Of a DNA stretch of 64,000 nt, positions 14,564-35,998 are shown piece by piece. The stretch is from contig JBAQUX010000025.1 of assembly GCA_049297775.1 (NCBI GenBank), positions 58,835 through 122,834 on the forward strand. The letters are read 5' to 3'. This stretch comes from Minisyncoccia bacterium. GTDB lineage: Bacteria; Patescibacteriota; Minisyncoccia; Phycocordibacterales; UBA2100. Below the pieces are notes generated by a model, which worked only from the letters and a program-made list of their open reading frames with translations, did no database searches and was not told the DNA's origin. Within the stretch, counting starts at the first letter, position 1, and each line of letters begins with the position of its first letter. Made by a program: the position numbers and the translations under genes.

Positions 14564-14735
14564 TTCATAACATCTTGGGCCCGTGGGCCACCAAACTCAG
14601 TGCTCGTAGACATTCCCGTCTCGGAGGAACGTGTACACTGCAGTGAGCGATGCTACAAGAAAATAACTCTACAATATAAATTGAAATTTTGAAAGCGGTT
14701 AGACGCAAAACAATGGGTACATATACGCATAGTCA

Positions 14736-17380: not shown

Positions 17381-17467
17381 CTATTGATTCTATCAAAGAA
17401 TAGCCTTATGCACCATCAAAAAAAATGAGGCCAGACACTAGTTTTTCATAGCTCAACTATCTTCTTC

Positions 17468-17514
17468 TACATGTATAACAAACACCGCCATAGGGCGGTG
17501 TTTGTTATACATGT
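17468..17514. repeat. Perfect 20-bp-stem hairpin/palindrome (catgtataacaaacaccgcc-ata-gggcggtgtttgttatacatg)
   Basis: Seen directly in the sequence, between the stop of 17529..19715 and the start of 16013..17380. No adjacent U-tract. Confidence 0.6.
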
Positions 17515-17528
17515 ATAGGAACAACGAA

Positions 17529-19715: not shown

Positions 19716-19734
19716 ATACTACAAAGCATACATC

Positions 19735-19777
19735 ATCACTACTAAAAGGCATAAGTACTTGTCGGTATAATTTTTTG
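19735..19777. promoter_or_regulatory. Conserved ~43-bp upstream element, copy B (tcacact-aaaaggcaTaagtacttgtcggtataattttttg), 5' of the surface-protein gene
   Basis: Near-identical to 34322..34364 upstream of the RHS gene. Contains the palindrome AAGTACTT and a TATAAT on the plus strand. Confidence 0.5.
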
Positions 19778-19904
19778 CAGAAGATACCAAGAATTTCACA
19801 GCTGCACTCAAGTCAATGTTGCGATGCATACAGGCACCCGCGCTGAAACGCGTCACGCATTGATTTATTGCAATGAAACTAATACCTGATCCTGGTTATT
19901 CTGT

Positions 19905-20035
19905 CGCGTATTTCCTTACCACCATTTTATTTTTTCTGGCATTTCGCCATCTTCTCTTGAAAGATTAGCGAAAGGTAGATGCATTTTTTCGACGCACCTA
20001 CATTTGGTATATTTACTTTCATGCCAGGGTAATCC
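19905..20035 (-). pseudogene. Decayed remnant of an immunity gene paralogous to imm3 (23160..23765)
   Basis: Minus-strand translation gives ...MKVNIPNVGASKK... and, in another frame, ...FANLSREDGEMPEKIKWW*. These resemble the imm3 N-terminus (MSIGASKLL) and C-terminus (FAKVSNSDGIMPSKIKWW*). The shared sequence ccaccattttatttt is present at both loci. Confidence 0.45.
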
Positions 20036-20058
20036 GATTCAAAATAGTAACTAACTTA

Positions 20059-20541
20059 CTAATTCAGTAACGTCCCCAACTCTGCATCTACAATTATCAC
20101 ACCTTTTTTCTTCAGCCTAAGCACAACATCTTTCAAAGACGATCTTGAAAAATACATCTCCTGAAGGACAATTTCATTTCCATTCTTTGCTTGAATTACA
20201 AGACTGTCACTACCATACGATATTACATGTGTCGGACCGTATGTCACACTACTTACTTCACTGAACTGCATTCTTCGCATAATCATGAGGTACTTTCTTT
20301 CATATATACCTGTTTCATCTACCCCGACTCCATCTAACTTTAAAATTAGATGGAGTAGTCCAAAAATTAACATGCACAACGCAGAGATAACAGCGCGAAA
20401 TTCCATTGTGTTTGGCTCAAGAAATAACATTGGAATTATAATGAACCCAATAATTGGTAAATATTGTACTGTTTTGTAGTAGTTGTAATACATATTTTTA
20501 TTACTTATTTTTTGAAGGTGGTGGAACAACAATAACTCCAC
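20059..20541 (-). CDS. Putative immunity protein for orphan toxin cassette CT1 (membrane protein)
   Basis: Lies immediately 3' of cassette CT1, with a hydrophobic TM segment (LPIIGFIIIPMLFL...ISALCMLIFGLLHLIL). The probable start is the MYYNYYK Met (~20493), which avoids overlap. Confidence 0.5.
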   Translation of the reverse strand: MELLLFHHLQKISNKNMYYNYYKTVQYLPIIGFIIIPMLFLEPNTMEFRAVISALCMLIFGLLHLILKLDGVGVDETGIYERKYLMIMRRMQFSEVSSVTYGPTHVISYGSDSLVIQAKNGNEIVLQEMYFSRSSLKDVVLRLKKKGVIIVDAELGTLLN

Positions 20542-21533
20542 TCCATGTAGATACAGCGCCGTTCGGAAGCGTCCATAATTGTGTATATGGATTTTGAATT
20601 TGTTGTTGCTGATGAGTATTTCCAGGTGAAGAAAGTATATTTTGCGTTACGACCGAAGTTGACGATCCAAATATTTCTCCTGTCATTTTTTCAAGAACCT
20701 TCTTAGAGGCGGGGACCTTGCCAACGCCCCAACTAAAGAAACCACCAGTCACATAAGTTGCACTTCCTGATAATGCAGCTTTTTTTATGTCTGGGTATTC
20801 TCCATTTAAAGCGTCCTGGGCAGCAGAGCCGAAAGCAGATGACACAGCTGTTGCTACTTTATATGAACCAAGGAACGCCATTGTAGTTCCACCAATTACA
20901 TCTCCGGCAACATATGACATCGGAGATGAAAGATTGTCTGTAAATGCATTTTCTCTTCCATTTGCGCGATTGTTGATTACGTCCCCTGTGTATGTTGCGT
21001 AGCTGTTTACTCCAGCCCCTATGATAAAGAGGCATGGGATGAGCGCCGGACCTGCACATGTTCCATTTGGATCAGTATACTTAATTGGATTATTTTTTGC
21101 GTACGAATACAGATTTTGCTGCTGAGGATCAAGGAGCAACTGTTGCGAAATATTATTAATCCCCAGTGTCTGAGCCACCGGATCCTGACTCACAAACTGC
21201 CCCGTACTTGGATTGTAATACCGTGCGTTCAAATATGAAAGCTGTGCAGTATCATCGTAGAGTTCTCCTATGTACTTGCGCTGGGTATCAAATGAGGTGG
21301 CTTTGGTGTTTTGTCTGATGTCACCGTAGGGATAATAATCAATCGTTTGCACCTCATTCGGTATGAGTGGTCCTGGTGGGACTACCGCTACGGTACGGGT
21401 TTGGGTGACTGATTGTCCGCCACTGTCGGTTGCCGTGTAGGTACGCGTGTAGGTACCTTGTACTGCAGTGTTTACGGTTCCAGTCACTGTTGGAGTAACC
21501 GTGCCGTCTTCTGTGTCTGTGGCGGTTGCGCTG
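20501..21533 (-). CDS. Orphan RHS C-terminal toxin cassette CT1 (silent; no ATG; in-frame homology to the RHS core end)
   Basis: 21178..21533 is near-identical to 25611..25960 of the main RHS gene (...TVTGTVNTAVQGTYTRTYTATDSGG...YYPYGDIRQ...ARYYNPSTGQFVSQDPV). Then comes a divergent NLYSYAKNNPIKYTDPNGT demarcation and a Gly-rich hydrophobic C-terminal domain. The frame opens after a TAA with no ATG; the track's 'M' is a GTG. Confidence 0.7.
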
Positions 21534-21642
21534 GGGTTGGTGAGGGGTTAATGAGAAAGAACTATCGACCGTGAGTGAATTATATCATTTGATAAACAAG
21601 GTTGAGAATAGGTTTTCTATTGGAAATATGATGACTGTCAGA

Positions 21643-22098
21643 TTATTTATTTTTACCGTCAAAAAAGGACTGCCATTTTAAAAGCCATGTATCCATATTA
21701 TCGTAACTATCCCGATAAAGCTTAAATTGCTTCACCGCTTCTGTATCTCTATTTAAAATTAAATTTGTGTAAAAACCATTTTTCGCAACCTCTGGGTACC
21801 CTAGAAACATCTTAACAAAGGGGTATATCTCTTCCAGGTTGTCGACAAGATGAATCTTCCAGTCTGGCGGTATCGAATCATCAACAACGTCGAAGCAATA
21901 TGCATACTCAAAGGTAAGTCTGTCCAACAAATATTGAATACCACTATCAAAAAAACCAACGGCAAGCACATTATATTCTTTGCCGAGCTCAACGCCAGCA
22001 AACATTTCTTCAGGGATGTGACTTCGCCCATTTCTGTCAAATTCAGAAGTATATTTCGCAATTTCGTCCCGATTCTTTCTAGCAAGTCTAACGCGCAT
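21643..22098 (-). CDS. Putative immunity protein for orphan cassette CT2
   Basis: 151-aa acidic cytoplasmic-type protein immediately 3' of CT2 (the usual toxin/immunity arrangement). Confidence 0.45.
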   Translation of the reverse strand: MRVRLARKNRDEIAKYTSEFDRNGRSHIPEEMFAGVELGKEYNVLAVGFFDSGIQYLLDRLTFEYAYCFDVVDDSIPPDWKIHLVDNLEEIYPFVKMFLGYPEVAKNGFYTNLILNRDTEAVKQFKLYRDSYDNMDTWLLKWQSFFDGKNK

Positions 22099-22107
22099 AA
22101 TTGTAAT

Positions 22108-23048
22108 TTAATTATTAATAAATTTAAAATCATCAACTTTAAATATCCCATTCACATTTAGGCCATTGAAATGAATCTCGACTTTTCCACCACCACTCCC
22201 TGAATATTCACGAGAATATGAATACTTATCCCACCCCTGCCACCTACCATCTTTCAACTCACTCATGATTTTTTTTCCTGACATCGGGTTTGACATGACC
22301 TCCTCCATAGAAAGCTTTTCTTCAAGACTATTGGCGACAGTTCTTCCGGTAGAACCCAAACCAGCAAACTCAGTCTTTGCCCCCATAGTTGCATTTTTAA
22401 TAGTCTTTCCATTTGTCGCAGAAAACCTTCCCGCTGAGCTCGACCCCTTGCCGGCCACCCCTGTAGCTAACCCAACCGCAGTATCACCAAGAATACCTCC
22501 CAAAATCGCATCTTGTTCAGCATCAGTACCGAAGAAGAAATTCTGTGTGGTTTGACTTCCTTGACCAGTTCCAATACTTTGCACACTATTAGATATCTGT
22601 CGTCCAACTGCTTGCATCGTACTGGATGCACCGTTGTTGTACACATTTGATATGAGAGAAAGAGTGCCTGCGCCTGTGCCCCAAATAGATCCTCCAGTAT
22701 TTTTTGCGGTACCTGAGATGGTAAACAACCCCGACGGATCCTTACTCCCTATCGGATTGTTCCCTGCATACGAGTAGCTGTTGAGACTTTGTGGATTCGC
22801 AAGGTTTTGTGATTGCCACCAAAACACCGGATCCTCACTCACAAACTGCCCCGTGCTTGGATTGTAATACCGTGCGTTCAAATATGAAAGCTGTGCAGTA
22901 TCATCGTAGTATTCTCCTATGTACTTACGCTGTATATCAAATGAGGTGGCTTTGGTGTTTTGTCTGATGTCGCCGTAGGGATAATAATCAATCGTTTGCA
23001 CCTCATTCGGTATAAGTGGTCCTGGTGGGACTACCGCTACGGTACGGG
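22108..23048 (-). CDS. Orphan RHS C-terminal toxin cassette CT2 (silent)
   Basis: 22826..23048 is homologous to the main gene's core end (VVPPGPLIPNEVQTIDYYPYGD...SEDPV). It then has SYSYAGNNPIGSKDPSGL (PxxxxDPxGL-type demarcation) and a unique Gly/Ser-rich C-terminus. No ATG (GTG at NEV). Confidence 0.7.
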
Positions 23049-23159
23049 TTTATCATAGTTAATTTGAAAGAACATTACGGACTTACATCTTCGACTTGAA
23101 GGCCGTAGGTATAATTTCTTATATACGAATCAGCAACGTTGTGACTATCGTATATTTTC

Positions 23160-23765
23160 CTACCACCATTTTATTTTGCTTGGCATTATCCCGTCCGAAT
23201 TAGAAACCTTAGCAAAGGTTAATTTCATTTTCTCAGAAATGAGGTCATCAATCATTCTATGTGTAGAAGATGCATATACACCGCATGGTTCATTTTTCAC
23301 TACAAGCAGTTTTCCATTTTCATCTACATATCTCGGAGCCTTGCCATTTTCATACGGCACCTCAATGAAACAGTGCTGGGAAAGCAAGTCGTCTTTTGTT
23401 AATTCTTTATGTTTGATTGTCTTGAAATATCCATCGAGCCAACCTCTTCGATTGCAAATCTCAGGGTCAATAAGTAAATTATTCTTATCAAGAACCGGAT
23501 CTGATTCAATTTCTTTTGTAATATGATTATATATGTACAAAAGAAAATCTTCACCCTTTGACATAGGACCTTGCCAATCCTCTCCCAAAATAACTCTTCC
23601 GTAAATATACCCGAGATACTTATTCTTAAATACAAAAATATCACCCACTTGCGGCTTCTTTCTGCTCACACCTAAAAAATCCATATTTATATCGTATTTT
23701 CTCATTTTATTTTCCTTTAGTTTTCTTTGCTTCCTGTATAATAACTTGCTGGCCCCAATTGACAA
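23160..23765 (-). CDS. Putative immunity protein for orphan cassette CT3
   Basis: Immediately 3' of CT3. The likely start is MRKYDINMDF (~23705). The C-terminus ...MPSKIKWW is shared with the remnant at 19905..20035. Confidence 0.45.
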   Translation of the reverse strand: MSIGASKLLYRKQRKLKENKMRKYDINMDFLGVSRKKPQVGDIFVFKNKYLGYIYGRVILGEDWQGPMSKGEDFLLYIYNHITKEIESDPVLDKNNLLIDPEICNRRGWLDGYFKTIKHKELTKDDLLSQHCFIEVPYENGKAPRYVDENGKLLVVKNEPCGVYASSTHRMIDDLISEKMKLTFAKVSNSDGIMPSKIKWW

Positions 23766-24587
23766 CTTCTTGATATATTGGGTTTTTGAATGAGATACTG
23801 CTTATTAAATTTTGATAGGCACCTCCTCCAGCAGTAATAAAAGCCTCTTCTACGGCGCGTGCCTGGTTGCGAGTATCGAAATCAGTAAATTTTTGCAATC
23901 TATCGAATCTTCCTCCATGCTGAAATTGTCTTTTAGCAACATCTTTCGCAATACCAACATACCTTTCGACACCAGCAATTAATCCTTTGTAGACAGATGC
24001 AGGTTCGCCTTTCATTAAGAATTCAGCAGCCTCCTTTGAAACTTGAATCCCTCTTACTGTGACAGTATCCAAACTTTTTTCGGCTACCTTTTTTTCCGTA
24101 CCTCCAGTCATAAAACCAGCTACAAATAATGCATTTTCAGCATTTTGCGTAGGAGACTGTTGATATATATTTGAACCAACGGGCTCTCCACTTTCAAAGT
24201 CTGGCATGAGTAACCCGCAGGCAACAGCCATTGCAACCGTTGAACACCGACCACTCGAATCTTTCCTCCCTATCGGATTCCCTCCAGCATAGCCATAACT
24301 ATTCTGTGCTTGTGGCTGTTGCACTGCTTGTGCACCGTCTTTAGTAAGTCCAAGTTCCCAAAACACCGGATCCTGACTCACAAACTGCCCCGTGCTTGGA
24401 TTGTAATACCGTGCATTCAAATATGAAAGCTGCGCAGTATCATCGTAGAGTTCTCCTATGTACTTACGCTGTATATCAAATGAGGTGGCATTGGTGTTTT
24501 GTCTGATGTCGCCGTAGGGATAATAATCAATCGTCTGCACCTCATTCGGTATGAGTGGTCCTGGTGGGACTACCGCTACGGTACGGG
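23707..24587 (-). CDS. Orphan RHS C-terminal toxin cassette CT3 (silent)
   Basis: 24369..24587 is homologous to the main core end. It has a QNSYGYAGGNPIGRKDSSGR demarcation and a unique ~200-aa C-terminal domain. An in-frame stop lies upstream with no ATG. Confidence 0.7.
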
Positions 24588-24665
24588 TTTGTCATAGTGA
24601 ATTTGAAAGAACATAACGGACTTACATCTTCGACTTGAAGGCCGGTAGGTACTTATGACTAAATT

Positions 24666-24932
24666 TTAAATAATTAAAATTTTCCAAAAGCCGTAGAGGG
24701 AAAGGCTGACAGATGCAACACCTATTACAAGCCATTGAATGCCTAATGAGTATCTTGTGTATGCGAGCCTCCATTTCGGCAAGCTTAAATATGATTCATT
24801 AACTGAATTTTCTTTTACGGATTCGATATTATTTATATAATATTTTTTTGACCATAGCGTACTGAAACCTATGTAACAAAAATATACACCAATTAAAAGG
24901 AGGGCGAGAGTCATGTATACGGTTGAAGACAT
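24666..24932 (-). CDS. Small 2-TM membrane protein, putative cognate immunity protein of the full-length RHS toxin
   Basis: 88 aa, two hydrophobic helices, starting 30 nt after the RHS stop on the same strand. Confidence 0.5.
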   Translation of the reverse strand: MSSTVYMTLALLLIGVYFCYIGFSTLWSKKYYINNIESVKENSVNESYLSLPKWRLAYTRYSLGIQWLVIGVASVSLSLYGFWKILII

Positions 24933-24962
24933 GTTGTAATATAAATTAGTTTCTAAATAATC

Positions 24963-27900
24963 TTATTTCTTCTGCTTCTGCACGTTCAGCATACCGCTTG
25001 AATTACGCTGATAACTAGCTCCGTCCTGATTCACAGTTTCGGGCAAACTGCTGGTATTCTGCTTTGCATTATTTTGTGAGCTGTTTTGCTGCTTTTTATC
25101 ACGATCATCATTGTAAAATTTAGTTAATTGAGGGCCCATGTAGTGATCCATAACATCTAAGATTGTTGGACCGATTTCAAGGATAAGTTTCTCGCCAATT
25201 TCTTTTGTGGCACTCGTCGCACCTCTGAACATGAGATCAATTCCGAGAGTTATGCTTGTATCCTTTTTTTGCTGCTGAGTAAAAAAGTTTGGGTAATCGT
25301 AATATACTGTTTTTAGGTCGTAAAGATTTACTAATGTTTGGGCGCCTGAGTAGACAGCAATGATTGGCAAAATTGGTATTGCCTCGCCACTTCTATCAAA
25401 ATTTTTAATTGGATTACCAACACCATATGCATATGCATTAAGAGCTTGCGGATTAGTGAGGAACTTTTGAAGGGTTGCGACGTCATCGTCGTTATTATTT
25501 CCTGCTGTTAATTTTTTTTGTATTGTTGGTACGTTTTCAAATAGCCTACTACTGGATTGAATTCTGTTTAATGACTCTGTAAGAGTAGGTGTGCCTAGAG
25601 ACAACACTACCGGATCCTGACTCACAAACTGCCCCGTGCTTGGATTGTAATACCGTGCATTCAAATATGAAAGCTGCGCAGTATCATCGTAGAGTTCTCC
25701 TATGTACTTACGCTGTATATCAAATGAGGTGGCTTTGGTGTTTTGTCTGATGTCGCCGTAGGGATAATAATCAATCGTCTGCACCTCATTCGGTATGAGT
25801 GGTCCTGGTGGGACTACCGCTACGGTACGGGTTTGGGTGACTGATTGTCCACCACTGTCGGTTGCGGTGTAGGTACGCGTGTAGGTACCTTGTACCGCAG
25901 TGTTTACCGTTCCAGTTACTGTTGGAGTAACGGTGCCGTCTTCTGTGTCTGTGGCGGTAGCACCACTGTCTACATAGGTTGAACCTTGTGAGACGAGTGT
26001 TGGGTTGGTGCCACTCAGCGTGAGTACTGGTGGTGTGTTGGTTTGTGGTGCGAAGATACCCGGGATTTGGGATTGGGTCAGCCCAGTGCCGGCAAGAATC
26101 TTTACTTCATCGAGTGTTCCTTTGTGATATGACCATACACCTCCCGTGTTTGATTTGCCAAGGTAGGCAGTGGTGCCGGTGAATGAAAGGTTGGTTACTT
26201 GGCTTGGTGTTGAAGATGACTGGAGGACGTTGTCGAAGTAGAGCTCGATGGTGTTGCCACGTCTGAGACACACCATGTCGTGCCAATTATTGTCATACAC
26301 AGGAACGGTTGACGTATTGAGTGTTGTGCCACCTACGTGACAATTACCCTGCATATTTGAGTTTACATACATGTAGATATTGCTGTAGTTGTTTACATCG
26401 GTGCCCTCAAAGAAGAGCGGGCTACTTGCGTAGTTGAGTGGCCACACTGTTTTGAACCGTACTGCAACAGTAAAGTCTGAAGTTGCAGGACTATATGGCG
26501 TGAAGGCAAGATTGTCTGAGGTGCCATTCAAGTACGCTGCGGTATCTGCAGTACCTTCCTTTCCTGCTACTGATGTGTACCCATTTGAAGTAAGTGGATA
26601 CGTACTCGTGTTTATACTATTCTCTAATTTACTTGTACTTCCTTGTGCTCCCGTGTACTTCCACTGTACGAGCGGTGTAGGAATAGTGTCGGCTGGGTTT
26701 GGAGCACGAACGATTACAGTGCGTATTTTGGTGTCGGTACTTCCACCACTATCTGTAACGCTATATGTCTTAACGTACGTACCTGTCGTGGCGGTGTTCA
26801 CCGCACCTGTTGTTACGATACTTTGTGTCAGTGTGCCATCTTCTGTGTCTATTGCACTTGCTCCTTGCTCCGTGTATGTCGCATTCTGTGCAACGATTAC
26901 GGTAGACTCACCGATTACAGATACTTTCGGTGGCCTATTGTATTGCACAATGTCTGACGTGATTGCGGATGATGAACCAAGAGTATCTGTATGCAGATAG
27001 TACGGTGTTACCGTAGTCCCAACTGTTTCTATTGTGGCTACTACTGTATCCCCTGCAAATATGTGCTTTGTCTTTTTACCTGTCGAATCTTTGTTATAGA
27101 ATTTGTTTGGATATTTTGTAGTCAGTGTGCCACTTGTGTGACTCACGCGTTGCTTGCTTGTGTCATAACCGTATGTTGTTGTTACTCCACCTTTTGTAAC
27201 ACTCGCGAGCGTATTGTTGTAATTCCACACATACGTACGAACGCCATCACTCACGACATTTCCGTTATTGTCATACGTGTAGGAACTTGCACCTATGGTA
27301 GTTACTGCATGTGGGTTTGCATATCCCGTACCTGCATAGCTATATGCACCGGTATCAGACTTATTGGTGATACTACCCAGTGCATCGTACGCAAATGTAT
27401 GTGCATAGTTTGTTCCCACGAGGGCGTTTGATGCTGTCGCACTCGTTAAGCGGTATAGGTCGTCATAACCCAACGCAAGGTTCTTCTTTGTATTGGTATC
27501 AGAAGCATCACCTATTGCCGTAATGTTACCTACGGCATCATATGCGTATGAGAGATACTGGTATGCCTTTGACGTGTAGGTTGTGAATGTTCCCGTAGTG
27601 CTCCAGTCAGTCTCAGAATTTCCGGTTGTCCAGAATTTAATGCGCCAATAGTATTTGGTGCCATTAAACGTGAGCGGTGCACCTGCGTACACTATGTCGC
27701 TGGTACGCGCCCCAAACGATGTCGCAGAAAGCGATGTACCTGCGGCGCCCGAATCCCACAGTATGCCAGTCGAGAAATCTGCACTCGTTGCAACTTGCAT
27801 ACGATATTTATGTGCGACTGTTCCTGATGCACCGAGATTAAATATACCTGAGAAAACTGGCGCACCACATTTTAGTTCTACTGGATTTAACGCTCCATCT

Positions 27901-30900
27901 TGTGCGGTTAGGCACCCTGAGTACAGATAACTTTGCACAACCTGTGGCGTGGTTACTACAAAATAATCTGAGCCGTCACTCCATGGACCTTGTGTACCTC
28001 CTGTATCCCAGAATCGTATTCTCCACAGATATTTAGTGCCGTTTAACTGCAACGCAGTGCCTCCGTACGTAATGTTTGGCGTCCTGTCACCTTGGTTTAA
28101 GAGAGTTGGCAGTGCGGATTTCTGTGAATCCCACAATGGTGTTGCCCAGTTTCCACCTTCAGGGATAACTTGCACTGCGTAATGCGCACCGCTGTCTACC
28201 AGGTCGGGGTCATTAAATGTTGCCGTAAATTTTGGAGTACCGGTGGTTACTGTTGTTGGATTACTTAAGCTTTCAACTTTTAAATCTGTTGCCGTTGGCG
28301 GAATTGTTGGAAGTGAGTATGTTACTTCTAGGTATGGGTCAAAATCAGTGCCCGTATACTCTGACATTCTGAATGCATACGAATGAAATCCGGAAGTTGG
28401 AGGTACGTTGTCTTTATCGTATCCCGAGCGTAAACCAATTTTCGTCCAACCGGTAAGATTAATTGAACCGATACCAGTCGCATTAAGTGCAAAAGTTTTC
28501 CAATCTGGCGATGTAAATGTTCCATTTGCAGAATTTACACGAGCACTTAACTCAGTTGTGCCAGACTGATCAAAGTCATTCAGTACGAGCGCAGTTGGTG
28601 ACGCCTGTGTTGTAGGCACAACTACAAGATACGCATTTGGGTCCCATGCGTAGTTTACATATGTCGAGTACAGCTTTAAATTTGCACCTGTTATATTCGC
28701 TGTATCAGGAAGCGCATCTGTATTAAAGGGAACAAACAAGCGCTCGATAGTATCTGAATATTGTGCATTTGAAGCAGTTGGACCGCAACTTGACGTGCAC
28801 GGATATGCGCCGACACTTGCATCGTGTGAGTCACTCCATGAATTAGTTGGAGAATAGTTTCCTACTGCCCCATCAGCAATGTCAGAAGAGTAACTCAAGA
28901 TTGCGTCTGTAGTTACCGGGTACACTGCCTTTACTAACCATTCTTTTGGAATATGTTTTGTTAAAAGATATCCTCCGGGAACTTTTGTATACTCAACTGT
29001 TATTTGAAGCTTCTTATTTTCTGAATCCCAAATTTTTGGTGCGAATATATATACAGAATCTTCACCTTTCAGGAGCCGTGCATTTGCAGTAGTACTCATT
29101 GTGTCTTTTATAGATGTGTCACCAACCAAAAGCTCTACATCATCCTGCACGCGCAACATAAACGATACATCGTATGTTGCATCTGCATCATTTAGATTTT
29201 TTAATGCATCTGCATTTTGAATTACTACGTCTTTTGCGACGAAATTATTGTCTGCGCGAAGCACTATATCTATCCCGTCACCATACGCATTTTTCTCTCC
29301 AATTTCTCGCTCTTCCTTTTCAGTACGACTTCCCATCTTCCCGTTTTTTTCTCGTATTTGAGCACTCTTTGTTGCATTTGAATTTCTAGACTTCTCGTAT
29401 TGAGACTCAATTGCAACCGCAAGCTTTCCTACGGTAAAGGTTGCGAGTTCTACACTTATGTCTGTCTTAATATCGAGAGCATATCTTGCATCTCGAACCT
29501 TATACCCTTCTGCATCTTTGCGAATGCGTGTATCTATTGGCTGTAATTTCCCTTCAGCATCTTTGTAATGCACTGGTGCAGAAAATAATCGTGTTACTCG
29601 TGTTTCGTTTCCTTGTTCATCTCTTCCAACACGAATCGTGTAGCTATTCTCAGTTCTTGCTTTTTCAATCTCGGTGTCGTCCTTTGTATGAACTAGTGAA
29701 AGTAATTTTGGAAAATCTTCCGTATTCGAAGGCTTTTCTACAACCACTTCAGGCTTTTTTTCTACAACATCCGTAACTATTTCTTTCGGAGTGTCGGAAG
29801 TGTTTTGTTCATCCGGAATCGTAGGCGTTTTGATAGAGTCAGACACTTCCTCTGGTTCTACTGCAATCTCAGGAAGTGGACTTTGTGGTGCCGTAATAGC
29901 CTTAATTTCTTCTTGTATCTGCACTTCTTGCACCTCTGGAGAAGCAACCACTTCCTCAGCAAGCGGAACAACGAGAGACTGTTCTGCTGGCACGATTGGT
30001 ATTTCAGCAACAGGTGTAACATCCTCAGCTGGCGGATCAATTGTAGAAATATTTTTCAAGCGATACATCTCATTTGAGTCGTAGGTGTGGTATGTCCACG
30101 TATTGTTGGCGAGTTGCTTCAAGGTAAACTGACCGTGCGGACCATAATCATAATTTGAGACCACATCAACCCATGTACCACCCGATTCTTTTCGTTGGAT
30201 TTTCTCAATCCTTCCCGTCTGGTTGTAGGTATATTTTACTTGTGCACTGTCTGGCGTAGTAATCGTAGATATATCTCCTGTTCGAGTGTAGTCAAAGTTT
30301 GTCGTGAATGTTTCTCCTCCGATAACTCTTTGCTCTTCTGCGACGTCACCACGAACCGTGTATGTATATGTAGACGTTGTTGTACCGCGCGTAGCTGTAC
30401 TTAACCTGCCTTTGCCATAGGTTCCTATATCATACGTATAGCTTGCTTCTATTCCTGAAACATTTGTTGCGTCTTCTGAAGTTAGTCTATCGAGTGCATC
30501 GTACGCATAGTTTACGACTGTTCCTGACGGTTGAGTTTCTTGAGTTTTATTGCCCTGTGCATCGTACACAAAATTCCAATTGCCAAAAGTACTGTCTGCA
30601 GGTGCATGCAAGTCTTCTGCACTTGTTCTGCGGTTTGCTTTATCATACGTGAAGGCACGAACATTTCCTCCGGCATCTTGTATAGTACTCAGATTATTTT
30701 TTGTATCGTATGTGTATGTGGTGACATTTGGTGTTGAGCCAACAAATTCTGTCACTTTGTATACACTGCCACGCGCATCTGTTTCATACATTTTTTGTTT
30801 ACCTTTGGCATCAACTATCGTCTTTTTCCAGTCCGTGTAGCTTGTTGCTGTCGTTCCAAGTGCATTTACTGAGCTCACGACTCTATTTAACGCATCGTAT

Positions 30901-33900
30901 ACAAATGAAGTTGCGAGTGCGGAGTTTGTACTTGGGCTCGTTTTACTCCCGCCAATACTGGCGTATGGCAATGATTGTGAGGTCACGGTACCGTCTCTCC
31001 CGTATGTTGCGTCAGCTACAGAATACTTTCCTCCTTCGTTACTCACGCGCTTTTGAATTACCCTGCCAAGTCCATCGGCATACGTGTACGAATCCTGTGA
31101 AAGGGATCCCGTAATGTAGGTCCGTTCATACACACTGTTTGCGTTACGCGTATCCGTATAGGTGAGTGTTTTTGAAGTTATCAGTGATGCCGGTGCACTA
31201 TTGTCACTTGCTCGCACTGATACTACACGCCCCAAGGCATCGTAGGTGGTTTCAACGGAATATGTATTTGCATCAGTTACCAGTTTTGGCTTACCTATGA
31301 TTTGATTGTACTGATACGTAGTTGCGTGCGTCAGCGGATTTGTACTGGTTGCCGGATACAAGTTTTGCGCATCGTACGTAAGCGTTGTTGTGTAGTTTCT
31401 TGGGTTGATAATCGAACTTACCAGTCCATACGAGTTGAACGTGCGCTGTGTTGAAGCATACGTGGCTCCTGAGAGGAGTTGTTCGGTTTTCGTTTCGTTT
31501 CCGATGGTCACTGTGCCTAGTGGCTGAGCATCATAGTAACGACGGGCCTCTGATTGAATGACTCCTAACTGATCTTTAAGAAGCTGGCGTGATACTTTGT
31601 TCAAAATTTTGCCAGCGGTATCTGTTGCATACGTGTACTCTGTTACGCGCTTATCTGTACCAGTATCAACATACGTGCCATCTGGCGAGGCGTTAACTTC
31701 TCCCCACTCTGACTCAGAAAAAATGTTACCGTTTGTGGTGTTATATGCACGAGTTTTTACTGTGTCTTTGTGCGATGCATCACCCTCATATATGAGCGTA
31801 GCAACTTGCGTGTTTTGTACAAAAAACTGATTCCCTGCTACTGCAGCAATCCAGCGAAGTACTTCCAAAGAATACAGAGACCCATTGCTTGCATACCGTG
31901 CGATTCTGTACGGCTTACCAATTTTTGAAGGGTGGTCTAACACTTCACCATTTGTAGTATCTGTAGTGTTTCCTTGGTGGTAATACGTTTTTGTTTTGTT
32001 ACCTGCAGAATCTGTAACGGTGATTATGTTAAACCCAGCGAATTGCTTATCATTATATGCATTAAAGTACTGCGATATACCTTCATAAAAATATGTTTTT
32101 GTATCAAGGTATCCAGAGCCATCGCCAATAGTAATAGTATCTACCGTAGTTACAGGATATGGTGAGCCAGTATTAACTAGATTTCCACTTCCATCTTTAT
32201 AGGCAAGCGAACTTTTGTACGTATACGACACACTCCCACCTTGCGGAAGTGTTACTGAGGTAAGCAAGTCTGCTTTTTTACCTGTATTCAAATATACTTT
32301 ATTTGTCAAAACACCACCTGGAAATATTGCACCGACCAAATCTGGCAGTGAGTCGCCGTTTATATCTAAGATTCTCCAACCCCCATCTTTTTGCCCAGTT
32401 ACTCCGTTCCAAGATGAAAACACCACATCTGAGGGAAGATTGTACGTACCCGTATTGAAAGTTGTACCGGTATTAGTGAATAATGATTGAACGTTTGTTC
32501 CACCAGCATTAGTTGCTGATTCAATAATATCTGGCAAACCATCTGCGTTTATATCAGCAATTCGTGAGCCGACTCTTTCTGACCCGTCTATACTAAAGGG
32601 ATAAGCTCCAGGTACGGTAATTGCAGATGTCAGAAAACCTTTAGCTGAGTTAAGTTTGAGTGCTTTTACCGTCACATTGTTTACGACAGACCACTCTATT
32701 GAGTCCAGTAGGCCGTCACCGTTAAAATCTCCAAACCGTCCATCATTGGTGTACGGCGCGCCATCTGTCCAGGTGACTGAATCTTTCCAGCCGAGAGTTA
32801 CTCCATTACCAAAATACGTAGACATAATATCTGCGCGACCGTCTCCATTCCAATCTGCAAATGATACATTGTTAGGGCCAGAATATAGACTACTAAATCC
32901 AAAACCGTCTGGAATGCTATACGCAGAATTCCATACATAATCTGTAGGACCTTTCACAAAAACTTTTTTATACTGTTTATTCTCAGACGGCGTCTGATTG
33001 TAATCATCATCATCGTGGGCCTCGACAAGGTCGTCCATTCCATCACCATTTACATCTCCGACGCGCAGGCCGAAGTCGTTGTGATTCAGCGTGTCCTCAG
33101 CTAAAAAGCAAGCATCCGTAGGAACAAGTGCTGTGGTAATTGTATTCCATGCAGTACCAGTATTAAGCGCAGTTTGCTTGTTGTAGCATTGAGCTGGAGT
33201 TGGCCCGCTTGCTTTAATTATATCTGGCAACCCATCCCCATTTACCTCAGCAAAGCGAACACCATTATCAGGTGTAAATGCTGTATCAATGAGAGGAATT
33301 GAAATTGACCAATTTGGTGCCACTTGCCATCCTACTGTCGGCTGTTGGTAGGCAAGTTGCGTTGCAGGTAGTGTGACAACATTACCTTGTTCATCTCGTC
33401 CACTCTCAACCACAGTACTCAAAACGGAACGAACACCATTTACACCGGTGCCATAGCCGAGGTCATATTTTCTAACCCAGGTGCCACTTTTCTTTGCGAT
33501 TACTTGTTTTATACGATAGTTTGACGTAACTGCAAAAGCGGTTTTGTATGATGGTACTGTGTCTACACGTGCTTCACGAATAAAATTTACTTCAAAAATA
33601 CCATCTGTGCTTCCTGAACCTGTATAGAAAATAGAATCTGGATATATTTGTCCAGCATTTTTAAAATATGTATATCGCGCAAAGTTATTATTTGTATCTC
33701 TCACTTCGTCAAGCATCCACTGATACACATTTGCAGTATTCGCGATGTCATCTTGTCGCGATGCGGCAGTAGAACCTAATTTGAATACGGTCCCGTCCTT
33801 TCCTGTAATAGTCCACGCTGTGCCTGTATACGCATATGTATTGTACGCACCAGAGTCGTATTTAGCTCTATAGATAGCAGGTGAGCCTGCAGTAATCAGA

Positions 33901-34286
33901 ACCAGCTCTCCATCAAGAGAAGAAGTAAAGGTGTTTTGTGTATAGAGATTATTTACGCCCTCTTTATTTAGTCTTGAGATTGCAGGGATACCCACTGACC
34001 ATCCGTATCCGTATAAGCCAGTATTATCACTTGTATTACTATTGTATGAAAGTGAGAGCGACGGTTCGATACCATTTCTTCCTGGAGGAGTTACGAACGG
34101 AATGTCATATGTCGCAGACCCAGTATTTCCTTCTGGGCGAATTTGAATTGTTTTAGATTTTGTTTCAAGAAGACTTACTGGAACGTTGTATCCGTTATCC
34201 TCTGCTCGAGCTACGTTTGGGAATGCGCACGTCTGTAAAAATATGGTGAGAACAACAATTACAGCGACAGCTCTTTTTGTGCGCAT
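24963..34286 (-). CDS. Giant (3107 aa) secreted RHS/YD-repeat polymorphic toxin with a TcB/SpvB-like N-terminus
   Basis: Signal peptide. SpvB/TcdB-N-like region (IEPSLSLSYNSNTSDNTGLYGYGWSVGIPAISRL). Multiple FG-GAP/VCBS-like repeats (DVNGDGMDDLV, DWNGDGRADI, DFNGDGLLDS, DINADGLPDII, DINGDSLPDLV). First YD-repeat block (YTYD..GN, YDALGR...). Pro/Glu-rich linker. Two fn3-like modules (KYLWRIRFWDTGG / KYYWRIKFWTTGN). Second YD block ending YYLHTDTLGSS. Two Ig-like modules (TYxxTDSGG). A LamG/ConA-like module (DNNWHDMVCLRRGNTIELYFDNVLQ...LDEVKIL). A terminal RHS core end (YYPYGDIRQ...RYYNPSTGQFVSQDPV + AYAYGVGNPIKNFDRSGE). A unique ~150-aa C-terminal domain. Confidence 0.9.
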   Translation of the reverse strand: MRTKRAVAVIVVLTIFLQTCAFPNVARAEDNGYNVPVSLLETKSKTIQIRPEGNTGSATYDIPFVTPPGRNGIEPSLSLSYNSNTSDNTGLYGYGWSVGIPAISRLNKEGVNNLYTQNTFTSSLDGELVLITAGSPAIYRAKYDSGAYNTYAYTGTAWTITGKDGTVFKLGSTAASRQDDIANTANVYQWMLDEVRDTNNNFARYTYFKNAGQIYPDSIFYTGSGSTDGIFEVNFIREARVDTVPSYKTAFAVTSNYRIKQVIAKKSGTWVRKYDLGYGTGVNGVRSVLSTVVESGRDEQGNVVTLPATQLAYQQPTVGWQVAPNWSISIPLIDTAFTPDNGVRFAEVNGDGLPDIIKASGPTPAQCYNKQTALNTGTAWNTITTALVPTDACFLAEDTLNHNDFGLRVGDVNGDGMDDLVEAHDDDDYNQTPSENKQYKKVFVKGPTDYVWNSAYSIPDGFGFSSLYSGPNNVSFADWNGDGRADIMSTYFGNGVTLGWKDSVTWTDGAPYTNDGRFGDFNGDGLLDSIEWSVVNNVTVKALKLNSAKGFLTSAITVPGAYPFSIDGSERVGSRIADINADGLPDIIESATNAGGTNVQSLFTNTGTTFNTGTYNLPSDVVFSSWNGVTGQKDGGWRILDINGDSLPDLVGAIFPGGVLTNKVYLNTGKKADLLTSVTLPQGGSVSYTYKSSLAYKDGSGNLVNTGSPYPVTTVDTITIGDGSGYLDTKTYFYEGISQYFNAYNDKQFAGFNIITVTDSAGNKTKTYYHQGNTTDTTNGEVLDHPSKIGKPYRIARYASNGSLYSLEVLRWIAAVAGNQFFVQNTQVATLIYEGDASHKDTVKTRAYNTTNGNIFSESEWGEVNASPDGTYVDTGTDKRVTEYTYATDTAGKILNKVSRQLLKDQLGVIQSEARRYYDAQPLGTVTIGNETKTEQLLSGATYASTQRTFNSYGLVSSIINPRNYTTTLTYDAQNLYPATSTNPLTHATTYQYNQIIGKPKLVTDANTYSVETTYDALGRVVSVRASDNSAPASLITSKTLTYTDTRNANSVYERTYITGSLSQDSYTYADGLGRVIQKRVSNEGGKYSVADATYGRDGTVTSQSLPYASIGGSKTSPSTNSALATSFVYDALNRVVSSVNALGTTATSYTDWKKTIVDAKGKQKMYETDARGSVYKVTEFVGSTPNVTTYTYDTKNNLSTIQDAGGNVRAFTYDKANRRTSAEDLHAPADSTFGNWNFVYDAQGNKTQETQPSGTVVNYAYDALDRLTSEDATNVSGIEASYTYDIGTYGKGRLSTATRGTTTSTYTYTVRGDVAEEQRVIGGETFTTNFDYTRTGDISTITTPDSAQVKYTYNQTGRIEKIQRKESGGTWVDVVSNYDYGPHGQFTLKQLANNTWTYHTYDSNEMYRLKNISTIDPPAEDVTPVAEIPIVPAEQSLVVPLAEEVVASPEVQEVQIQEEIKAITAPQSPLPEIAVEPEEVSDSIKTPTIPDEQNTSDTPKEIVTDVVEKKPEVVVEKPSNTEDFPKLLSLVHTKDDTEIEKARTENSYTIRVGRDEQGNETRVTRLFSAPVHYKDAEGKLQPIDTRIRKDAEGYKVRDARYALDIKTDISVELATFTVGKLAVAIESQYEKSRNSNATKSAQIREKNGKMGSRTEKEEREIGEKNAYGDGIDIVLRADNNFVAKDVVIQNADALKNLNDADATYDVSFMLRVQDDVELLVGDTSIKDTMSTTANARLLKGEDSVYIFAPKIWDSENKKLQITVEYTKVPGGYLLTKHIPKEWLVKAVYPVTTDAILSYSSDIADGAVGNYSPTNSWSDSHDASVGAYPCTSSCGPTASNAQYSDTIERLFVPFNTDALPDTANITGANLKLYSTYVNYAWDPNAYLVVVPTTQASPTALVLNDFDQSGTTELSARVNSANGTFTSPDWKTFALNATGIGSINLTGWTKIGLRSGYDKDNVPPTSGFHSYAFRMSEYTGTDFDPYLEVTYSLPTIPPTATDLKVESLSNPTTVTTGTPKFTATFNDPDLVDSGAHYAVQVIPEGGNWATPLWDSQKSALPTLLNQGDRTPNITYGGTALQLNGTKYLWRIRFWDTGGTQGPWSDGSDYFVVTTPQVVQSYLYSGCLTAQDGALNPVELKCGAPVFSGIFNLGASGTVAHKYRMQVATSADFSTGILWDSGAAGTSLSATSFGARTSDIVYAGAPLTFNGTKYYWRIKFWTTGNSETDWSTTGTFTTYTSKAYQYLSYAYDAVGNITAIGDASDTNTKKNLALGYDDLYRLTSATASNALVGTNYAHTFAYDALGSITNKSDTGAYSYAGTGYANPHAVTTIGASSYTYDNNGNVVSDGVRTYVWNYNNTLASVTKGGVTTTYGYDTSKQRVSHTSGTLTTKYPNKFYNKDSTGKKTKHIFAGDTVVATIETVGTTVTPYYLHTDTLGSSSAITSDIVQYNRPPKVSVIGESTVIVAQNATYTEQGASAIDTEDGTLTQSIVTTGAVNTATTGTYVKTYSVTDSGGSTDTKIRTVIVRAPNPADTIPTPLVQWKYTGAQGSTSKLENSINTSTYPLTSNGYTSVAGKEGTADTAAYLNGTSDNLAFTPYSPATSDFTVAVRFKTVWPLNYASSPLFFEGTDVNNYSNIYMYVNSNMQGNCHVGGTTLNTSTVPVYDNNWHDMVCLRRGNTIELYFDNVLQSSSTPSQVTNLSFTGTTAYLGKSNTGGVWSYHKGTLDEVKILAGTGLTQSQIPGIFAPQTNTPPVLTLSGTNPTLVSQGSTYVDSGATATDTEDGTVTPTVTGTVNTAVQGTYTRTYTATDSGGQSVTQTRTVAVVPPGPLIPNEVQTIDYYPYGDIRQNTKATSFDIQRKYIGELYDDTAQLSYLNARYYNPSTGQFVSQDPVVLSLGTPTLTESLNRIQSSSRLFENVPTIQKKLTAGNNNDDDVATLQKFLTNPQALNAYAYGVGNPIKNFDRSGEAIPILPIIAVYSGAQTLVNLYDLKTVYYDYPNFFTQQQKKDTSITLGIDLMFRGATSATKEIGEKLILEIGPTILDVMDHYMGPQLTKFYNDDRDKKQQNSSQNNAKQNTSSLPETVNQDGASYQRNSSGMLNVQKQKK

Positions 34287-34321
34287 ACAATATTTTTAGG
34301 AGTTAATGTATCCATGGTATC

Positions 34322-34364
34322 TCACACTCTAAAAGGCACAAGTACTTGTCGGTATAATTTTTTG
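34322..34364. promoter_or_regulatory. Conserved ~43-bp upstream element, copy A (tcacactctaaaaggcaCaagtacttgtcggtataattttttg), 5' of the RHS gene
   Basis: Near-identical to 19735..19777. Contains the 10-bp palindrome CAAGTACTTG. Lies 40-80 nt upstream of the RHS ATG, which has no Shine-Dalgarno. Confidence 0.5.
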
Positions 34365-34381: not shown

Positions 34382-35998
34382 CTACTCGGATTTTGGCGTT
34401 GCTGTTGTCGGGAGTTCAATAATAAAGCGTGAGCCCTTGCCTGCGCCATCTGACTCTGCCCAGACTCTACCCTTGTGCGCTTCAATCATTTGCTTTGCAA
34501 CGTAGAGTCCAAGTCCGGTACCACTGATGTTTACCCTAGACGCTCCACGCGCACGCACAAACTTATCAAAGAGTTTTCCTATTTCTTCCGCAGGGATACC
34601 AATACCCGTATCTGATACCACGATGCGAACGGTACTGCCTACCATCATACCTGTCACGGTTACCGAGCCGGCTTCTGTATACTTAATTGCGTTATCCGTG
34701 AGGTTACTAATGACGTGTTTAATTTTTCCGTAATCACAATTAACCATGAGTGGTACATCGCCTGGCACTCCGGTAAGGTCGAGCTTTCGATACTTTGATT
34801 GCTGTGCTAACTCAGTGGTAACTTCTGTTATAAGCGTGCGCACATCAAAATCTGAAAAGTCATACACCATTCTTCCCTGCTCTATACGCGACACACTTAA
34901 GAAGTCTTCAATCGTTTGTGACATGAGCACACCTGAGTGCACGATGCGTCCCAAGATTTCTTTCATTCTGTCATTAATTTCTCCATACGAACCGCCAAGA
35001 AGTAGCGATGAGTAGCCATTCACCGCAGTTAAGGGTGTGCGGAGTTGGTGTGTTGCAATAGAAAGGAATTCTGATTTTTGCTGACTTAACTTTTCAAGTG
35101 ATTCGTTTGCGACTTCTAGTTGCTCTGCCAGGTGCTGTACGCGAGCACGCTCATTAATTTCGTTCTGCACACTGCGTACGAGTAAATATGAAAATCCAAT
35201 ACTAAAGATAAGTGTAATAAATGCAATGAGCGAACGTGATGCATACAATCCCACTTCGGTAACGGTATTTAAGAGTGAGAACGTATAGAGTAATACCGAA
35301 GCGCCCGCAAACAACTGCGCGGCAACCACCTTAGCACTCATGAGCCCGTGACGGAGCACGCCATAGCTCATGAAGAAGATATAGAACATCACAAAGTAGT
35401 TACCAAACGGATATGCCCCAAACATTTGCGGGAAGAAGTTTGTTGCACCGCCAAGCGTACTCACGGAAGTAGCAATAAGTGTAATGAGTAACTGCTTTTT
35501 TACTTTTGCATCCTCCTCGCGCTTATATGACAAAAATAGCAATGTGTTTGCGATACCGCCCACCGTAAGAAAGAACGCTGGGAATAAAAGATACAAAGAG
35601 CCAGGCACAATCCAGTAGACACCGAGAGACACATTTTCTACTCCTAATTTAAAGTATGGCGTAAGACTAAAGAGTATGAGTACCGAAGCAATACTGTAGA
35701 TAAAGGTTGAGTACAGATGTGCGTTTTTAAACTTCCCAAGCTCTGAAGTAAACGAGTAATATGTTGCCGGAATTAAAATTGCCGCGATATCAAGCATGTA
35801 CTGCCACAACACGGCATTCTCATATGAAGTGCTGTAGGTAACTCCCGCAAGACCTAAGCTCCACAGTCCAATCGTTGAAGAAAAAATAATCCATTTTCTA
35901 TTAAGCACTGACTTTGTTTCAGTACTATAAATAAGAAAACCAAACGCAATGCTGGTCAAAAACGTCATGAAGCACGTGATTGAAAATATCACTCCCAT
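34382..35998 (-). CDS. Sensor histidine kinase with a multi-TM N-terminal sensor domain (orphan; no adjacent response regulator)
   Basis: About 8 hydrophobic segments, then H-box SEFLSIATHQLRTPL, N-box DNAIKYT, G1 DTGIGI and G2 GTGLGL. Confidence 0.85.
   Translation of the reverse strand: MGVIFSITCFMTFLTSIAFGFLIYSTETKSVLNRKWIIFSSTIGLWSLGLAGVTYSTSYENAVLWQYMLDIAAILIPATYYSFTSELGKFKNAHLYSTFIYSIASVLILFSLTPYFKLGVENVSLGVYWIVPGSLYLLFPAFFLTVGGIANTLLFLSYKREEDAKVKKQLLITLIATSVSTLGGATNFFPQMFGAYPFGNYFVMFYIFFMSYGVLRHGLMSAKVVAAQLFAGASVLLYTFSLLNTVTEVGLYASRSLIAFITLIFSIGFSYLLVRSVQNEINERARVQHLAEQLEVANESLEKLSQQKSEFLSIATHQLRTPLTAVNGYSSLLLGGSYGEINDRMKEILGRIVHSGVLMSQTIEDFLSVSRIEQGRMVYDFSDFDVRTLITEVTTELAQQSKYRKLDLTGVPGDVPLMVNCDYGKIKHVISNLTDNAIKYTEAGSVTVTGMMVGSTVRIVVSDTGIGIPAEEIGKLFDKFVRARGASRVNISGTGLGLYVAKQMIEAHKGRVWAESDGAGKGSRFIIELPTTATPKSE

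Follow-up and report, generated by a model that had tools for sequence, protein, structure and literature searches.

Near-identical short direct repeats around an accessory gene cluster, placed in a variable slot between conserved blocks, are the hallmark of attL/attR-type island junctions. A conserved sequence of ∼35 bp upstream of more than one surface-protein gene is known from another reduced genome, that of Mycoplasma pulmonis, where the 34-bp vrs sites of the vsa locus are mutually inverted and inversions are carried out by a dedicated recombinase. Rhs loci of Enterobacteriaceae have a main SpvB/RHS gene and, behind it, orphan modules that each open with a copy of the core end, with small ORFs between them; short direct repeats around an entire Rhs locus have, to our knowledge, not been described. 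Large surface proteins and toxins of Patescibacteria are prime candidates for host interaction, and we are aware of almost nothing that is known about gene regulation and genome plasticity in these bacteria.

Here, we describe two copies of a 36-bp sequence, CTAAAAGGCA[T/C]AAGTACTTGTCGGTATAATTTTTTG, in a metagenome-assembled genome (MAG) of Minisyncoccia (Patescibacteria). Both lie within the window, i.e. the whole stretch of 64,000 nt that was analysed, at 19742–19777 and 34329–34364. They align without gaps and are identical at 35/36 positions, the sole mismatch being T/C at 19752/34339. Both copies have the same orientation and are therefore direct repeats, with a start-to-start spacing of 14,587 bp. 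With two gaps allowed, BLAST within the window extended the match to 19733–19777 and 34322–34364 (93% identity over 45 columns, E = 4e-13). An earlier note had reported a near-identical element of ∼43 bp at these positions, 27–62 and 43–78 nt from the two ATGs; the element is present as reported, its 43 bp corresponding to the gapped BLAST extension and the distances being right for the 36-bp core. The locus is made up of the following features:

17462..17521, minus strand: hairpin (28-nt arms, 4-nt loop) immediately past the stop codon of the 728-aa gene
17529..19715, minus strand: gene for a 728-aa secreted protein with Ig-like repeats, downstream of copy A (NCBI: hypothetical protein, Minisyncoccia MAG)
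19742..19777, minus strand: copy A of the 36-bp repeat, CAAAAAATTATACCGACAAGTACTTATGCCTTTTAG on the gene strand, its end 27 nt 5′ of the ATG of the 728-aa gene
19778..24962, minus strand: remaining enclosed segment with three orphan RHS core-end and tip modules, small putative immunity ORFs and a degenerate remnant
19901–19990: the degenerate 90-nt remnant, inside the enclosed segment
21177, 22826 and 24365: 300-nt repeat marking the orphan modules, with a fourth copy at 25609 inside the main RHS gene
24963..34286, minus strand: gene for a 3107-aa SpvB/FG-GAP/RHS-repeat protein with Ig-like and laminin-G domains, downstream of copy B
34329..34364, minus strand: copy B of the 36-bp repeat, CAAAAAATTATACCGACAAGTACTTGTGCCTTTTAG on the gene strand, its end 43 nt 5′ of the RHS ATG
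34382..35998, minus strand: histidine kinase (HK) gene, upstream of copy B and last gene of a conserved DnaK-DnaJ-acyltransferase-HAD-HK block

That the entire RHS cluster lies between two copies in direct orientation had not been mentioned in the earlier note. Neither half of the element (a 25-mer and a 20-mer) matched any other site in the window at ≤3 mismatches, and two matches were obtained in 0 of 100 shuffles in the control for these halves. Outside the two copies, the flanks showed no significant similarity (p > 0.2), so the edges of the repeat are sharp. An identity of 35/36 with such abrupt edges, which had likewise gone without comment, indicates duplication and not two independently conserved sites.

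We searched for a third copy in the window and 10 kb past each of its ends, which together cover 84 kb of a genome of probably ∼1 Mb. None was found in these 84 kb, either with the whole element (≤9/36 mismatches) or with a core 19-mer (≤4/19 mismatches), and the element was not found upstream of the window's other genes for unknown or secreted proteins. Two copies 14,587 bp apart, with none elsewhere in these 84 kb, do not make a dispersed repeat (REP/MITE) or a CRISPR array, and the architecture speaks against a CRISPR repeat; random scatter as a repeat family, named in the earlier note as an observation that would count against its proposal, was not seen in the 84 kb. The element resembles Correia/REP/MITE-type repeats in being a short repeated intergenic sequence with promoter-like hexamers, but differs from them in its copy number, in having no terminal inverted repeats within it and in being absent from the other genomes searched.

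Between the repeats lie precisely the main RHS gene, every orphan module and the remnant at 19901–19990, a cluster of 14.6 kb. As at attL/attR-type junctions, the repeats are in direct orientation around an accessory segment, and the slot, between the DnaK…HK block and a TrpS/AspS block, varies in content among related genomes. Unlike at such junctions, the segment has no integrase, neither a tRNA nor any other classical target is present, an empty site was not seen and the composition is not clearly foreign. Pfam and precomputed annotations of the enclosed segment gave only RHS/TEN_YD-shell, Ig-like and unannotated small ORFs, with no integrase, recombinase or transposase gene. At 0.36, the GC3 of the cluster lies less than one standard deviation below that of the rest (0.405 ± 0.05), i.e. 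its composition is not deviant. Neither an empty site nor an excised circle was seen in any assembly. Of the species' assemblies that reach one of the junctions, 4/4 either contain the cluster or end within it. The order of the main SpvB/RHS gene and the three orphan modules, each opening with a core-end copy and with small ORFs in between, matches that of Enterobacteriaceae Rhs loci, from which this locus differs in its host, a Patescibacteria MAG, and in the short direct repeats flanking it as a whole. In contrast to the vrs sites of M. pulmonis, the sites here are direct, so that recombination between them would cause a deletion and not a switch, and a recombinase was not seen.

Outside the cluster, the HK is a core Paceibacteria gene with conserved synteny whatever its downstream neighbour; at two loci of HK orthologues (L039 and L054), the upstream block is kept and the genes past the HK differ. 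Nothing was found that links the element to this kinase, whose pathway the earlier note had suggested as a common regulator. On the other side of the locus, the 728-aa protein has no Pfam match; its repeats match other Patescibacteria Ig-repeat proteins, and no orthologue was found outside the species. Its best match has only the Ig-like repeats in common and comes from a high-GC organism that uses Shine–Dalgarno (SD) sequences. The hairpin at 17462..17521 is probably a terminator, which would make the 728-aa gene a single-gene unit.

Among relatives, the element was carried only by strains with ≥97% nucleotide identity. It was missing downstream of the HK orthologues at L039, where the sequence was read, and at L054, where the gene table only was used. 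RHS homologues in other Paceibacteria (40–42% identity) lie in unrelated contexts, and the element was missing upstream of those at L048, L050 and L051. More distant relatives had neither cluster nor element. Exact scans with the 19-mer AAGTACTTGTCGGTATAAT covered 185,579 GTDB species genomes, JGI metagenomes and viral contigs, and returned 6, 29 and 0 matches, respectively. All of these were dismissed as chance matches, being inside coding sequence (mostly one SAR324 gene) and without flank similarity. Two of the follow-ups proposed in the earlier note gave no support for a regulon: the comparison of orthologous promoters found no element at the HK and RHS loci above, and the motif search gave two copies in 84 kb and nothing related in any of the three collections scanned. 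Literature searches on leaderless genes and on Rhs toxins of Patescibacteria yielded nothing bearing on the element.

Within the species, the copies are identical across all assemblies, copy B being identical in three other assemblies. The order HK–element–RHS is already present in a strain with 97% nucleotide identity, so a single difference in 36 bp fits neutral drift since duplication. Compared with this strain, there were 2 substitutions in the 59 nt of spacer outside the element versus 0 in the 36-bp element, a difference that is not significant.

We next considered the element in the context of the genome's start signals. Promoters of this genome follow the pattern (TG)nTAnnnT without a conserved −35 box, and the hexamer ends 6–8 nt 5′ of the ATG in 18/41 genes. 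SD-like tetramers precede 6/47 genes, against a background of 9.4%, and many genes in this MAG look leaderless. The statement that neither gene has an SD sequence is true for both, but describes a genome-wide trait; because of this general absence and the many genes that look leaderless, it is uninformative on these two genes. Just beyond each copy and within copy B or A, the following candidate sites were noted:

19725..19730, minus strand: candidate −10 box TATGCT, 11 nt 3′ of copy A and 9 nt before the ATG
34314..34319, minus strand: TACCAT, a candidate −10 box preceded by G at −14, located 9 nt 3′ of copy B and 27 nt 5′ of the RHS ATG
34338..34349, no strand: palindrome ACAAGTACTTGT in copy B, 12/12 symmetric, candidate site for a dimeric protein
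19751–19762: counterpart ATAAGTACTTGT in copy A, 10/12 symmetric

From the first box, which was assigned by the genome's promoter pattern, a transcription start site (TSS) at ∼19718 is predicted, giving a near-leaderless mRNA; from the second, a TSS at ∼34307 is predicted. On the gene strand, the −35-like hexamers TTATGC and TTGTGC lie 18 and 16 nt upstream of TATGCT and TACCAT, respectively. Both are weak, and a consensus promoter scan flagged neither site, the hexamers being below threshold. The distance from repeat to −10 box differs by 2 nt between the copies, that from repeat to ATG by 16 nt. Of the shared promoter or leader suggested in the earlier note, a promoter-upstream segment is compatible with these positions (TAnnnT 9–11 nt downstream, palindrome at the operator/−35 position); of an RNA leader there was no sign.

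The palindrome described in the earlier note was confirmed, perfect in copy B and disrupted in copy A by the copies' single difference. A 12-bp palindrome is expected by chance in ∼0.6% of 36-mers (25 centres × 4^−6). The symmetry is limited to these contiguous 12 bp, as the next three positions on each side (GGC/CGG) are non-complementary. Its dyad symmetry (12/12 and 10/12) would fit a dimeric regulator. Class II activator sites such as those of CRP/FNR lie at about −41.5, and the palindrome likewise lies at about −37 to −39 from the predicted TSSs, before two genes that could sensibly be co-regulated. It is unlike −35-overlapping operators of the CRP/FNR class II or Cro/XRE type in being a contiguous 6+6 palindrome, in occurring at two sites and in being embedded in a conserved block of 36 bp, far beyond operator length. 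Two further readings of the internal sequence were rejected. A sigma-54 promoter (plus-strand GGCAC-N6-TTGT) has its spacing one off and GT for GC, is directed away from the genes and reads GGCAT in copy A. The variable position yields ATG in copy A and GTG in copy B, but a leaderless mini-ORF would lack a suitably spaced −10 box, and its products (29 and 5 aa) are unrelated past the first three residues.

Taking together the repeat with its orientation and sharp edges, the enclosed content, the placement next to TAnnnT boxes and the lack of further copies in the sequences searched, we infer that both copies may descend from one promoter-proximal segment that was duplicated by the recombination that placed the RHS cluster, each now serving as an upstream half-promoter. 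We give this reading a probability of roughly 45%. It has against it the absence of integrase, recombinase and transposase genes from the segment, the unremarkable GC3, the failure to see an empty site or circle and, for the promoter, the broken palindrome of copy A, the unequal distances to −10 box and ATG and the weak −35-like hexamers. Still, the pair of copies resembles a single promoter-upstream segment that was duplicated more than it resembles the trace of a regulon. The ancestral segment would have comprised 36 bp ungapped, or ∼45 bp with gaps. Direct repeats are the junctions expected after a single crossover of a cluster-bearing DNA circle, whether homologous (Campbell-type) or site-specific, and an equivalent rearrangement would lead to the same arrangement. 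The unoccupied site, or the product of a deletion, would consist of the HK 3′ end, one element copy and tagtgatgatgtatgc. If the crossover site was just 5′ of a gene start, each copy would now form the upstream half of the following gene's promoter. On the gene strand, each copy would contribute an A-tract, CAAAAAATTATA, at about −45 to −58, the palindrome centred at about −37 to −39, and a weak −35-like hexamer, TT(G/A)TGC, 16 or 18 nt 5′ of the TAnnnT −10 box just beyond the repeat. If a dimeric regulator binds the palindrome, the RHS gene and the Ig-repeat gene would both come under its control. Co-regulation of the 728-aa and RHS genes is plausible.

The element could instead be the operator or promoter motif of a true regulon, in which a transcription factor, possibly below a two-component system, binds the palindrome at several secreted-protein genes and the bracketing of the cluster is coincidental. 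Both copies do lie 5′ of genes for large secreted proteins, in the same orientation and with the 12-bp palindrome about −37/−39 from a plausible TSS, and candidate HTH regulators are encoded nearby (XRE-type, 13943..14410; PaaX-like, 48333..48902). We nevertheless regard a regulon as unlikely, since no third copy was found in the 84 kb even at the permissive thresholds above, the near-identity with abrupt edges is unlike that of independent binding sites, the exact 19-mer recurred in the GTDB, JGI and viral sets only as chance coding matches, and the HK is a core gene with a variable downstream neighbour. Several degenerate sites, as expected of a regulon motif, were not found in the window and its 20 kb of extensions, and neither was conservation at orthologous promoters.

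The opposite strand offers another reading. The perfect TATAAT pointed out in the earlier note is there, on the plus strand at 19766 and 34353, and CGGTATAAT could act as a near-consensus −10 box with G at −14, firing away from both genes; its transcripts would be antisense to the HK 3′ end at copy B and to the last immunity/orphan module at copy A. Promoters of this genome need little beyond (TG)nTAnnnT, and perfect TATAAT is under-represented (29 observed versus ∼60 expected), which suggests that an intergenic copy may be active. However, no gene or conserved ORF follows, the short TTG/GTG ORFs being unrelated between the sites, a start codon is missing at the usual 6–8 nt, the two downstream regions share no similarity, and neither an Rfam family nor a stable structure was found. 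A functional plus-strand promoter is therefore quite improbable.

Equally doubtful is a reading of the element as a site-specific recombination site, with the 14.6-kb cluster as an excisable, re-integrating cassette and a recombinase (Xer-like or other) encoded elsewhere. This would account for direct 36-bp repeats with a central palindrome, for a cluster in a variable slot and for RHS genes whose contexts differ among relatives. Just inside both copies (4 and 6 nt) lies an 8-bp inverted repeat, AGATACCA, which fits this reading as well as the preferred one, at p ∼0.01 for a feature spotted post hoc. Against it, no recombinase gene was found nearby, no empty site in four assemblies, and the arrangement does not change between strains with 97% nucleotide identity. 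Moreover, lox, FRT and dif sites have 11–13 bp arms around a 6–8 bp spacer, unlike the 6+6 palindrome without spacer seen here; an Xer/dif-type site was rejected, as the symmetry lies only in the contiguous 12 bp and not in two 11-bp arms around a 6–8 bp centre. A more elaborate version is slightly harder still to credit: a Patescibacteria episymbiont would carry a mobile RHS cassette that recombines at the element, its excised circle re-integrating promoter-proximally through a recombinase encoded elsewhere and bringing a promoter/operator half-site, which would place the toxin and its adhesin-like neighbour under the same control.

That the element acts as RNA, as a terminator of the upstream unit or a shared 5′ leader, is highly improbable. 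On the gene strand, the palindrome does have a short T-run behind it, and copy B starts 17 nt past the HK stop codon. However, folding is no better than that of shuffles (MFE z-scores −0.9 to +1.4, near zero or positive for either strand), neither copy was called as a terminator-like site, Rfam gave no match even at E ≤ 1, and the loop-less 12-bp palindrome can form only a 4-bp A/T-rich stem. The fold z-scores, terminator calls and Rfam search thus give no support to a structured RNA leader or intrinsic terminator.

The duplicated promoter-proximal segment thus remains our preferred reading, and its weight is limited to that of a single duplicated 36-bp segment with two copies in one species. 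Should the element be a true operator, it would be a first handle on how genes for large surface proteins and toxins are co-regulated in Patescibacteria. Should it be a true recombination junction, it would document the entry of an RHS toxin cluster into a reduced genome.

A near-identical 36-bp repeat, reading CTAAAAGGCA[T/C]AAGTACTTGTCGGTATAATTTTTTG on the plus strand, was found at 19742-19777 (copy A) and 34329-34364 (copy B), the two copies agreeing at 35 of 36 positions without gaps (repeat family D7). With two gaps allowed, the BLAST match lengthened to 19733-19777 versus 34322-34364 (E = 4e-13). This is the 43-bp element described in the earlier note, which was confirmed in every detail. 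On the minus strand, that of both downstream genes, the element reads CAAAAAATTATACCGACAAGTACTT(A/G)TGCCTTTTAG and ends 27 nt (copy A, 728-aa gene) or 43 nt (copy B, RHS gene) before the start codon. The copies lie in direct orientation, 14,587 bp apart, and two matches were obtained in no shuffled sequence. Local alignment of 30-300 nt on each side gave scores no better than shuffles, indicating that the repeat edges are sharp, and neither half of the element recurred in the window at ≤3 mismatches. An 8-bp inverted repeat, AGATACCA, is situated 4 and 6 nt inside the two copies (plus strand 19782-19789 and minus strand 34322..34315; p about 0.01 in 25-nt windows, spotted post hoc).

Features associated with the two copies (window positions)
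17529..19715, minus strand: secreted Ig-repeat protein, 728 aa, downstream of copy A
TATGCT, minus strand: candidate −10 box, 11 nt past copy A and 9 nt before the ATG; predicted transcription start site (TSS) about 19718
19901-19990: degenerate 90-nt remnant, just inside copy A
21177, 22826 and 24365: 300-nt core-end repeat heading each of three orphan modules
24963..34286, minus strand: SpvB/FG-GAP/RHS protein, 3107 aa, downstream of copy B
25609: fourth copy of the 300-nt core-end repeat, within the main RHS gene
TACCAT, minus strand: candidate −10 box, 9 nt past copy B and 27 nt before the RHS ATG; predicted TSS about 34307

Copies A and B enclose a complete RHS locus, consisting of the main gene, three orphan modules, small interleaved ORFs and the 90-nt remnant. 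The locus (20059-34286, minus strand) has an orphan-module architecture of the classical type: behind each core-end repeat copy (79-96% identity among the four) come a tip that differs from copy to copy and a small ORF of low GC content, probably an immunity gene. The sequences upstream of ORFs 22108..23001 and 23707..24540 are nearly identical. The remnant shares 70% identity with 23145-23234, the 3′ end of a 201-aa ORF (23160..23765), and looks like what is left of another module, for the most part deleted, at the array's distal end. NCBI lists the 728-aa protein as hypothetical, from a Minisyncoccia (Patescibacteria) MAG, and annotates it with 707 aa, placing the start 21 codons after the first ATG. 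As the predicted signal peptide MITNYIYSRRSIIYFFISFLLVLPGISLAG would largely be lost with that start, the longer ORF looks more plausible. A near-perfect hairpin (17462-17521; 28-nt arms, 4-nt loop) lies 8 nt past the stop codon, its stem far longer than that of a typical intrinsic terminator.

The earlier note had suggested a common regulator of the two genes, perhaps acting through the adjacent histidine kinase (HK; 34382..35998, minus strand), a link that our comparisons do not support. HK, with hundreds of orthologues in Paceibacteria at 40-50% identity, is the last gene of a conserved DnaK-DnaJ-...-acyltransferase-HAD-HK block, and the next gene varies between genomes. In one related locus (L039), it is followed by a 411-aa protein and then QueA/TGT; in another (L054), the order after HK is a 105-aa protein, a further kinase, a hydrolase and TrpS...AspS. 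Between HK and QueA/TGT-TrpS-AspS, the window carries the RHS cluster, the genes for the proteins of 728, 455 and 406 aa and a gene of the XRE type. This varying gene content marks the interval as a variable accessory slot, and the position of HK next to the element looks incidental. The element was absent from the intergenic sequence after HK in L039, and nothing like it was found upstream of the RHS homologues of other Paceibacteria, which share 40-42% identity and lie in unrelated contexts. No orthologue of the 728-aa protein was found beyond the species. Exact 19-mer scans returned no match in viral contigs and, in JGI metagenomes and GTDB species genomes, only chance matches within coding sequence; as far as such scans reach, the element is not conserved beyond the species.

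Two NCBI assemblies and two Logan runs contain the species, and every short-read assembly breaks within the RHS repeats. For the sister strain (GCA_021733565.1, compared over window 25978-45992), nucleotide identity is 97.1% in the housekeeping genes and over the initial 1.4 kb of the RHS gene, but only about 94% deeper in that gene, with unalignable gaps. The strain has the same HK-element-RHS order and an identical element, so the duplication cannot be younger than the strain split. Because neutral drift since then predicts about one difference per 36 bp, the close match between the copies does not speak for purifying selection and simply reflects a duplication, the duplicated unit being the element itself.

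Globally, SD-like tetramers preceded 6 of 47 genes (background 9.4%), while a TAnnnT hexamer, often with TGn in front of it, ended 6-8 nt before the ATG of 18 of 41 genes (for example 37383..38051, 51087..51689, 53322..54173 and 16013..17380). Aligned, these promoters carried information at the −10 box and at −15/−14 only, with none at −35. Background-level SD signals together with TAnnnT boxes so close to the ATG suggest that the organism depends largely on leaderless mRNAs. The observation that neither gene has a Shine–Dalgarno sequence thus holds but, as SD-less starts occur throughout the genome, is uninformative about these two. The XRE-type HTH gene (13943..14410, minus strand; 155 aa), unlike nearly all other genes here, has a canonical AAGGAG 7 nt before its ATG; given this and its composition (GC 54%, GC3 54% versus about 40%), it was probably acquired recently. 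The spacer upstream of it (14411-14735; 325 nt) is GC-rich. Elsewhere, a 343-aa protein (60886..61917, minus strand) adjoining YceG and folate genes combines an N-terminal Sigma70 region 4 (residues 16-70), a HARE-HTH and a DUF3320 fragment, an unusual architecture for a sigma-related protein. Rfam called a 99-nt tRNA (48985-49083, plus strand; 47.6 bits) whose anticodon-loop region contains an insertion of 31 nt, whereas ARAGORN did not call it; this may be a bacterial tRNA with an intron or one that is atypical in some other way.

On the gene strand, the element supplies TT(A/G)TGC 18 nt (copy A) or 16 nt (copy B) from the candidate −10 boxes. Its 12-bp palindrome is centred about −38.5 (copy A) and −36.5 (copy B) from the predicted TSS, and its A-tract spans about −45 to −58. 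At site B, AGATACCA overlaps TACCAT. We infer, with a probability of roughly 45%, that the copies stem from one crossover event, whether homologous or site-specific, at a short stretch close to a promoter, by which the RHS cluster would have been inserted or rearranged, leaving one copy at each junction. Since the crossover site would have lain shortly before a gene start, each copy would form the upstream part of the promoter region of the next gene, and a putative dimeric regulator on the palindrome would affect both; XRE-type and PaaX-like HTH proteins encoded nearby are candidates. Against this reading, the enclosed segment contains no recombinase gene and is not clearly foreign in composition, and no empty site was seen. 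The consensus promoter scan, which flagged neither site, and the single A/B substitution, which weakens the palindrome in copy A, also argue against this explanation.

A genuine regulon motif is unlikely, being undermined by the abrupt edges, the absence from relatives and the copy number: no third copy was found at ≤9 of 36 mismatches in the window and 10 kb past each end, which also rules out a dispersed repeat. Shared control of both genes is possible, but on the basis of two sites of common descent, not of a motif. A plus-strand promoter firing antisense to HK and the last orphan module is less probable still. Its near-perfect −10 box, CGGTATAAT, lies in a genome where perfect TATAAT occurs at about half the frequency expected from composition (29 versus about 60). 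Nothing is conserved downstream of this box. We give equally little credence to a mobile RHS cassette for which the element would be an active site of site-specific recombination. An RNA-level role is very improbable: fold energies on either strand were no better than shuffles, no terminator-like site was called at either copy and Rfam returned nothing even at E≤1, ruling out a structured RNA or terminator.

The element is thus best regarded as a single promoter-upstream segment that was duplicated, its two copies flanking an RHS toxin cluster in a variable slot of the genome. It adds a new instance to two known kinds of feature: repeats at the junctions of an accessory cluster, and duplication of a promoter or operator region.
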